Shown one piece after another: positions 28,625 to 29,515 of a stretch of 64,000 bases of DNA (position 1 is the stretch's first letter; each line of letters begins with the position of its first letter). Both the position numbers and the translations under genes were made by a program. The DNA comes from a virus (taxonomy: Duplodnaviria > Caudoviricetes). The stretch spans positions 224,001 to 288,000 of IMG/VR virus record IMGVR_UViG_3300021514_000002; one strand, 5' to 3'. Below the pieces are notes generated by a model that had not been told where the DNA came from, made no database searches, and saw nothing but the letters and a program-made list of their open reading frames with translations.

Positions 28625-29515
28625 ATTAAAGGTTGAGATTATACCTTCTTCATTTGTACCTTCGAGTCATTATCCCATCACCTGCGACAGTTAGGGTTCT
28701 ACTCTTATCCACACCCCCAAGGGGTGTCTACAAACATGACTGCATTTTTTAAAGGGATGCGATACCCTTACCATGATAAACTACTCAAAGTTTTATCTAC
28801 CGTCAATCCTATCGGACTGTTAAGGGTTCGACCCCAACGTGCGACTCTGCTTTAAAACCATAGACCTTGCGGGTTGTCTGGTCACTACATTCACCGAAGT
28901 GTGTAGTATTAAGCCATTTTAATTTATCACTGGAAGTGACTTTGCTTTTTTAAAAGATAGTCGGGATTGAACCGACAGTCTTCTGCTTTAGAGGCAGATG
29001 CCTTACCATTTGGCTATATCATTACCAACGACGATGTGCACTTCCAATAGCTTCATGTCTTTTTAGGACACAAAATACTACACACCGAATGTCTTTCTCC
29101 TACCGGATACTTGACTGTCTTTCAAGACTCATGGGTTTTTACACCCGCGAACCTAACAGGAACATCCGAAGATGTCACCTAAACTGAAACAACGCCCTTG
29201 ATTGTAGTCTCGGACTATTCATTTCTACCCTTTATTCCTTATGGTTCGTGTTTTTGCATGATTGGTGATAACTGCTACACTATTCTTAATTAGCTCGTGT
29301 TCCCTATGTATCCGAAGATAAACACAGGCACGTCAACTAACATTCTTTACCAATCTAACACTTCACCACTAGCACCGCTGCTCTTGTCAACGATGCCACC
29401 CTTTCAGGGGGAATGAGGCTTGCATTAGTTTACCATTTCTGGCGATGGTTAAGTTGGATTACCATCTTTCCCCCTGTTGCCAAGGTTTATATCCCAATGC
29501 GATAATTCTTAAAGT
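28625..29515 (-). ncRNA. Large structured ncRNA (~890 nt), GOLLD-like by architecture, with embedded tRNA-like element
   Basis: No ORF of 60 aa or more; dense hairpins (UAUC-UUCG-GAUA, ACAUC-UUCG-GAUGU, GUCUU-GA-AAGAC, CCCU-GAAA-GGG, GAUGGU...ACCAUC, CACCCC...GGGUG); tandem sigma70 promoters upstream; family not verified. Confidence 0.6.
28952..29023 (-). tRNA. Second CUA-anticodon tRNA-like element, inside the large ncRNA
   Basis: GCC-AAAUGGUAA-GGC D arm (tRNA-Gln-like), UCUGC-CUCUAAA-GCAGA anticodon arm, GUCGG-UUCAAUC-CCGAC T arm; AU-rich acceptor stem with U3.U70 mismatch, no CCA. Confidence 0.7.

Follow-up and report, generated by a model that had tools for sequence, protein, structure and literature searches.

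The locus and its features

The window, i.e. the whole 64,000-nt stretch of DNA that was analysed, comprises bases 224001-288000 of an IMG/VR virus record of 363,531 bp, which is rated as complete by CheckV. The GC content of the phage genome is 36%, and a permuted tmRNA is encoded in addition to 45 tRNA genes. Only one public run, a hydrothermal-vent metagenome, contained all the sampled words of the stretch. In a second vent study 71% of them were detected and in cold-seep or marine-sediment runs 20-27%, while each of the RNA runs contained 6% at most.

We identified a GOLLD RNA of approximately 886 nt on the minus strand of the window (29515..28630). It is the only copy that Rfam detects in the whole 363,531-bp record. 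The features of the locus are as follows:

28271..28344, minus strand: free-standing tRNA(CUA), called by ARAGORN, with encoded CCA and A73
28356..28571, minus strand: rpsU (bS21), 71 aa; Pfam Ribosomal_S21, PF01165, E 1.2e-15
28630..28951, minus strand: GOLLD 3' domain, 322 nt; RF02032 model positions ~130-416
28952..29023, minus strand: linker tRNA(CUA), 72 nt; ARAGORN and Rfam tRNA, 67.9 bits
29025..29515, minus strand: GOLLD 5' domain, 491 nt; alignment of 10 phage loci and RNAalifold
29522..29549, minus strand: proximal promoter, TTGACA / 16-nt spacer / TATAAT, 12/12 matches to the sigma-70 consensus
29626..29653, minus strand: distal tandem promoter, 12/12 consensus matches, ~100 nt farther upstream
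29921..31084, minus strand: RNA ligase gene, PF09414 (E 1.9e-21) and PF21189, given for context only, outside the GOLLD RNA

The Rfam model RF02032 matched 29088..28630 (minus strand) over its complete length (model 1-416) with 199.3 bits (E 9.5e-55), the gathering score being 150 bits. In this alignment the pseudoknot strands are paired save for one non-canonical position. The 3' domain is the universally conserved part of the RNA and contains the pseudoknot; it ends in the hairpin UAAUCUCA, followed by a U-run. The initial annotation had assigned the region to GOLLD on architecture only, and this assignment is borne out by the score above threshold and by the location of the tRNA in the variable linker. 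Its proposed comparison with the Rfam models of GOLLD and ROOL was run as well. Within 28000-30100 neither ROOL nor another family was matched at E<=5, the other matches at this level being the two tRNAs and two sub-threshold hits on the plus strand, Plastid-ycf2 (E 0.19) and STnc250 (E 1.2), which we rejected as chance matches. BLASTN of the region against GenBank phages gave no match. We have hardly any doubt that 29515..28630 is a GOLLD RNA composed of a 5' domain, a linker tRNA and a 3' domain.

The region had further been described as free of ORFs and divided into a 5' block, a tRNA-like element and a 3' block. No ORF of at least 50 aa was found on either strand in 28572-29688, and the three-block layout proved exact, with 491, 72 and 322 nt on the minus strand. 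The UUCG and GNRA hairpin loops that had been noticed are present both in the sequence and in the alignments A2 and A3 described below. The RNA also lies, as had been remarked, directly upstream of rpsU (28571..28356) and of the second CUA tRNA (28344..28271). There are three tRNA genes within 3.6 kb of it. Linkage of rpsU with GOLLD was observed also in L125, L130, L129 and L496, and orthologues of the RNA ligase gene lie upstream of GOLLD in L125 and L130.

Predicted start and extent of the transcript

The proximal promoter (29549-29522) implies a start of transcription near 29515. The end coordinate given in the initial annotation, 29515, agrees with this start and with a drop in conservation from 88% to 65-68% in the ~85%-identical variants described below. 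Promoter-like sequences occur at the equivalent site in L102 and L130. The stretch with the distal promoter is 84% identical in L130, and its use would make the leader approximately 100 nt longer. Since no promoter-like site was found on the minus strand between 29522 and 28228, rpsU and the second tRNA(CUA) are probably located on the primary transcript of the GOLLD RNA, and we infer that the three are probably co-transcribed.

We compared the segments of the locus with those of three metagenome contigs (L495, L496 and L497), which are approximately 85% identical to the window. The stretch upstream of 29515 was 65-68% identical and the 5' domain 88-89%; the linker tRNA reached 96-100% and the 3' domain 93-95%, followed by 70-77% for the spacer past 28630 and 80-82% for rpsU. 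The linker tRNA was thus the most conserved segment. Judging from this profile, the conserved unit is 29515..28630, i.e. approximately 886 nt.

The 5' domain is a conserved fold

The RF02032 match spans the linker and the 3' domain but, within the 5' domain, no more than the final hairpin (29088..29030). Therefore, we searched for relatives by which the upstream 430 nt could be tested. Scanning with the conserved 3' motif yielded 119 GOLLD loci, and BLASTN of the 5' domain against these loci found no match. Two loci, L125 and L130, were found via relatives of the upstream RNA ligase, and the whole locus is common to both. A profile HMM built from nine aligned RNAs (alignment A2), together with further scans, gave approximately 20 members of the 5'-domain class, all of them in phage contigs, several of which are 150-350 kb long. 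Two loose pattern scans of viral contigs returned, among the matches listed, mostly unrelated DNA, and they recovered L138, L157 and L302.

Alignment A3 contains ten phage loci and has a mean column identity of 57%. RNAalifold predicted 106 consensus pairs on it, 82 of which show at least one compensatory double change. The covariation among homologues for which the initial annotation had proposed to look is thus found in the 5' domain. The consensus pairs have 92% canonical cells, in comparison with 39-44% after the 3' partners were slid by 1-3 columns, and the number of compensatory pairs fell from 82 to 21-35 after the same sliding. The consensus energy was -81.7 kcal/mol, as against -0.3 +/- 0.95 in 60 column shuffles. 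The sequence of the window keeps 95/106 consensus pairs. The closing helix of the domain, CCAAC (29457-29453) with GUUGG (29029-29025), covaries and stops one base before position 1 of the tRNA. Both GOLLD domains and their order are kept in the approximately 20 relatives. The 5' domain is a conserved, covarying fold common to a clade of large phages, and the locus adds this covariation-supported class beyond the Rfam model.

The linker tRNA of the phage

The linker tRNA is located in the J13/15 linker, which is the unstructured insert region of RF02032. It has all four arms, G18 G19 and the T-loop UUCAAUC, and its anticodon loop, CUCUAAA, is 7 nt long with U33 and A37. The amber anticodon, which had been pointed out as unusual, was called as CUA by ARAGORN as well and is kept in the three divergent metagenome variants L495, L496 and L497. 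In L495 loop positions 32 and 38 and the T-loop differ, while CUA is kept. The loop resembles that of a decoder on which selection acts. The element has the canonical cloverleaf, the 7-nt loop with U33, the CUA anticodon and the purine at position 37 by which a suppressor-type tRNA is judged.

The mature CCA and the stable acceptor stem of a functional suppressor are absent from it. The discriminator is U73 and no CCA is encoded; the linker tRNA does not belong to the 42 tRNAs with encoded CCA among the 45 of the phage genome. Its acceptor stem contains one G-C pair and a U3-U70 mismatch. In the free tRNAs of the phage 39/44 acceptor stems pair 7/7, with a mean of 4.1 G-C pairs. The lack of CCA and the weak acceptor lower the claim of a functional suppressor; the phage encodes a PolyA_pol/CCA-adding-type enzyme (PF01743), which could add CCA. 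The missing CCA, the weak acceptor and the gap of one base to the closing helix suggest special handling of this tRNA.

Linker tRNAs across the clade

We tabulated 20 linker tRNAs of the clade. None of them has an encoded CCA (0/20), and the linker tRNA of L370, which was not called, is also without CCA. Among the free tRNAs in the loci of the relatives CCA is encoded in 47/50. The acceptor stems of the linker tRNAs are AU-rich and mismatched and contain two G-C pairs at most in 20/20 cases. These tRNAs can be aligned over their whole length, and their anticodons differ and are of ten kinds:

CUA: window, L495, L496, L497
UAG: L125, L370
UUG: L130, L102
CUU: L369, L449, L388, L474/L404
UUU: L468
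UCU: L374
UGU: L381
GUU: L483/L484
GCA: L372
UUA (ochre suppressor type): L448

Two members of the clade, L371 and L083, have no linker tRNA. In L448 (IMGVR_UViG_3300047548_001122) the linker tRNA at ~10352-10425 has the loop CUUUAGA with the anticodon UUA. It appears to be derived from a Lys(UUU) version such as that of L468, and by its anticodon it would be the second stop-reading cargo in the clade.

In a tree of the GOLLD domains without the tRNA, the window was sister to L125 (UAG), and L369 (CUU) was sister to L374 (UCU). Such placement of differing anticodons indicates that the anticodon changed repeatedly while the body of the tRNA remained constant. The linker tRNAs probably descend from one ancestral insertion, and the counts of CCA and of acceptor pairs consequently do not represent independent events. 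The Lys CUU linker tRNAs may likewise represent few independent events. The short acceptor motif GAUAUAG...CUAUC was found in the tRNA-body scan also in approximately 105 unrelated free tRNAs, so the motif alone is not lineage-specific; we based the homology of the linker tRNAs on the whole-tRNA alignment and on their common position.

In L374 (G006:C1:199620-203080; a phage of 344 kb, 99% complete) GOLLD lies amid a dense island with 14 other tRNA genes. The main tRNA islands of the phage of the window are more than 150 kb away from GOLLD.

The second tRNA(CUA) and the use of amber codons

The free-standing tRNA(CUA) and the embedded one are unrelated in sequence. Homologues of the free tRNA were observed in seven related loci. 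All of them keep CUA, with compensatory changes in every stem, and they usually lie beside rpsU or within 2 kb of GOLLD. CUA tRNAs are not enriched near GOLLD generally (2/223 tRNAs near GOLLD and 2/563 in control loci), and their association with GOLLD is specific to the clade of the window.

Under the standard code (code 11) 91% of the genome is covered by ORFs of at least 80 aa, of which the longest has 3,712 aa. Of approximately 500 called genes 53-54 end in TAG. A neighbouring ORF in the same frame follows in 7.4% of cases after TAG and in 7.4% after TAA, and the median read-through is 6 codons after either stop. The in-frame TAG junctions separate different genes according to Pfam in 4/4 cases. 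Over the whole genome we found no excess of TAG and no special TAG context that would indicate a need for amber suppression. The phage genome also encodes an RF-1-domain protein within an open frame of 191 aa.

Two individual TAG codons were noted. The CCA-adding-type gene (G000:C1:77465-78802, outside the window) ends in TAG, which is followed by 58 in-frame codons. The coding score of this tail is 0.58, the mean of the gene being 0.31. An ATG is present seven codons past the TAG, and a separate small ORF is equally possible. At 28054-28183 (minus strand) an upstream ORF of 10 codons ends in TAG, and past it the frame continues for 32 codons into a gene of 179 aa. The equivalent stretch of L125 is open for approximately 27 codons. 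We considered this leader ORF as a target of suppression and rejected it, as the open frame is short and its peptide is not conserved in L125.

Comparison with known systems

GOLLD RNAs occur in phages and prophages, often in tRNA islands, and their 3' region is conserved while the 5' region varies (bioRxiv 10.1101/2024.12.08.627333; PMC12990946). The two structures solved by cryo-EM are cages made of RNA only, a 14-mer for env-38 and a 12-mer for Streptococcus agalactiae, in which the caps consist of the 5' domains and the linker faces the lumen (bioRxiv 10.1101/2024.12.08.627333; PMC12990946). The cage has been proposed to serve as 'inhibited storage', and the 3' domain alone can multimerise (both PMC12990946). 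GOLLD RNAs with linker tRNAs have already been published (bioRxiv 10.1101/2024.12.08.627333; PMC12990946; PMC6582537). A 2026 review, citing Morgado 2020, places a tRNA-Phe in J13/15 of a Mycolicibacterium GOLLD (PMC12990946). Northern blotting in M. aubagnense detected the GOLLD RNA but not the embedded pseudo-tRNA (PMC6582537).

The RNA of the window resembles the solved GOLLD RNAs in its 3' domain above the model threshold, in its two domains with a variable linker, in its length of ~0.9 kb and in its location in a phage with tRNA neighbours. The likeness of the 5' domain to that of published GOLLD RNAs, which is structured, less conserved and about 400-500 nt long, is one of size and of a structured fold. 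Unlike in the solved RNAs, the 5'-domain class was found by profile only in the approximately 20 contigs of large phages, a cage is putative, and the cargo of the linker is a stop-codon-reading tRNA. With the GOLLD of Mycobacterium and Mycolicibacterium the locus shares the tRNA-shaped element in J13/15 and the presence of the RNA in a horizontally transferred cluster of tRNA and HNH genes. In contrast to the pseudo-tRNA of M. aubagnense, the element of the window is a good tRNA (67.9 bits) with CUA, and it is the most conserved segment in the close variants. ROOL is likewise a large, ornate, cage-forming phage RNA found near tRNAs; the RNA of the window, having no ROOL match at E<=5, is not a member of that family.

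Stop-codon-recoded phages with suppressor tRNAs have reportedly been described by Borges et al. 2022 and Ivanova et al. 2014. Like these suppressors, the tRNA(CUA) of the window is phage-encoded and present in two copies close together. In contrast to them, the phage of the window shows no TAG recoding, and one tRNA of the pair forms part of a giant RNA.

The PARIS nuclease AriB targets Lys UUU, Thr UGU and Asn GUU tRNAs (PMC12409363), and tRNA variants of phage T5 neutralise it (PMC11464382; PMC12409363). The value of these phage tRNAs resides in their anticodon arm. The linker tRNAs of the relatives resemble them in having anticodons for Lys, Thr and Asn, and GOLLD has an RNA-repair ligase gene as its neighbour. 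In the window, however, CUA has no host counterpart, and the likeness may be read as an analogy only.

The locus is a further member of an established family. The stop-reading cargo is apparently unreported, as our literature search found no paper with both GOLLD and a suppressor tRNA.

Proposed function of the embedded tRNA

We consider that the locus is best explained as a GOLLD RNA that carries an amber tRNA, possibly caged and releasable, and we are rather confident of this explanation as a whole. Transcription would begin at one or two consensus promoters and would probably include rpsU and the second tRNA(CUA). The RNA would then fold and multimerise, so that 12-14 copies of the amber-reading tRNA would be enclosed by the cage, where they would form a protected and inactive store. 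Release of the tRNA would be possible only by endonucleolytic cuts, made by RNase P at the 5' end and by an RNase Z-type enzyme after U73. CCA would be added to the released tRNA by the phage's own CCA-adding enzyme, and the tRNA would decode UAG. Storage followed by release is favoured over its two rivals because of the decoder-like loop, the RNase Z-type 3' end and the wedging of the tRNA against the closing helix of the 5' domain. We hold this step only tentatively, with less than even confidence. The phage uses the standard code without sign of an amber suppression requirement, which speaks against this mechanism, and the CCA-less, AU-rich acceptor could be mere inheritance from one ancestral insertion. 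The failure to detect the embedded tRNA-like gene of M. aubagnense by Northern blot (PMC6582537) also favours the absence of release.

The tRNA might instead be an ordinary gene in a permissive linker, which is excised constitutively by RNase P and a 3' endonuclease to give a free amber suppressor, and which is linked with the GOLLD halves by co-transcription only. The location of GOLLD usually within tRNA arrays, with a tRNA 12-21 nt past the 3' end in many cases, agrees with this, as does the ability of the 3' domain to multimerise alone (PMC12990946). The loop and the tertiary nucleotides of the linker tRNA are normal, the phage has its CCA-adding enzyme, and the second, free CUA tRNA would mean that the phage uses suppressors anyway. 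Nevertheless, such excision would separate the 5' cap and the 3' domain of each RNA, although the two domains and their order are kept in approximately 20 relatives. The spacer on the 5' side is one base only, and linker and free tRNAs differ systematically in CCA and in the weak, mismatched acceptor. We regard constitutive excision as somewhat unlikely. Alternatively, the tRNA-shaped module may stay in the RNA permanently and take no part in decoding. It would then serve as a structural part or handle in the cage, with the anticodon loop as its specificity element; it could possibly act as a decoy or sink for host nucleases that target tRNA, or as a dock for tRNA-binding factors. This would account for ten anticodons that change between close relatives on a constant body, for the missing CCA and the weak top of the acceptor, and for the undetected embedded tRNA of M. 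aubagnense (PMC6582537). Many of these anticodons are those targeted by AriB, namely Lys UUU, Thr UGU and Asn GUU (PMC12409363), and the conserved upstream neighbour is an RNA ligase gene. The match with nuclease targets is, however, post hoc, and the Lys CUU tRNAs may reflect few independent events. Further, CUA is strictly kept in the sub-lineage, as expected of a decoder, and the decoy idea is a poor fit for the phage of the window, since a CUA loop does not resemble that of any cellular tRNA. We judge a permanently retained module to be unlikely.

Recoding of TAG in some genes, with both CUA tRNAs serving them, would fit the presence of two different CUA tRNAs, the conservation of the free one with CUA in seven relatives and the 58 in-frame codons of high coding score behind the TAG of the CCA-adding enzyme gene. 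That tail has its own ATG, however, and recoding is largely refuted by the code-11 coverage (91%, ORFs up to 3,712 aa), by the parity of in-frame neighbours past TAG and TAA (7.4% each) and by the four TAG junctions that separate genes according to Pfam. We find recoding highly improbable. A further reading treats the GOLLD cage as a container for a swappable tRNA cassette, which would shield its cargo or time its release: one tRNA body would stay in the lumen-facing linker while its anticodon changes fast. Two independent stop-reading states (CUA here and UUA in L448) and many defence-targeted anticodons would be part of this reading, which we put forward as quite improbable. If it were true, in this phage the cage, bS21, the second suppressor and the tmRNA would jointly reprogram termination on host ribosomes. 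It would also provide the first concrete role of GOLLD, i.e. storage and delivery of tRNA, for RNAs that have had no known function since 2009.

Few RNAs of bacteria and phages are as large and elaborate as the GOLLD RNAs, which form cages of RNA only and have no known function. The locus leaves the definition of the family unchanged and makes the linker tRNA, the one clue available, more precise. Within the clade this tRNA is the best-conserved segment; it is without CCA, has a weak acceptor, and its anticodon is swapped between relatives and is stop-reading here and in one relative. Since a stop-reading cargo is easily assayed with an amber reporter, the RNA of the window is a convenient construct for asking whether GOLLD hides, protects or releases its tRNA.

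Other elements of the phage genome

Between the GOLLD promoters and the RNA ligase gene we observed a separate structured small RNA of ~195 nt (29690-29917, minus strand), whose terminal hairpin is followed by a U-run. It has its own promoter with 11/12 consensus matches (29917-29889). It is 78% identical in L125 (5385-5660), where compensatory changes are visible, and ~72% identical in L495 and L496. No Rfam family matched it at E<=5, and the z-score of its single-sequence fold was only -1.0.

A two-piece permuted tmRNA is located at 9835-10219 (minus strand). It matches tmRNA_permuted with 105.8 bits, and its tag peptide is AANDAFFEETRLAA. It also matches the alphaproteobacterial tmRNA model, so the host may be alphaproteobacterial. 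A CRISPR-Cas module of a type I-F variant, borne by the phage, is suggested by an ORF outside the window (G000:C1:140704-142686) with a Cas5fv helical domain (PF20158, E 3e-61). Finally, the window has at 19028-24744 (minus strand) a series of genes of one orientation, among them a PrkA (YeaG) kinase gene (PF08298, E 4e-167).
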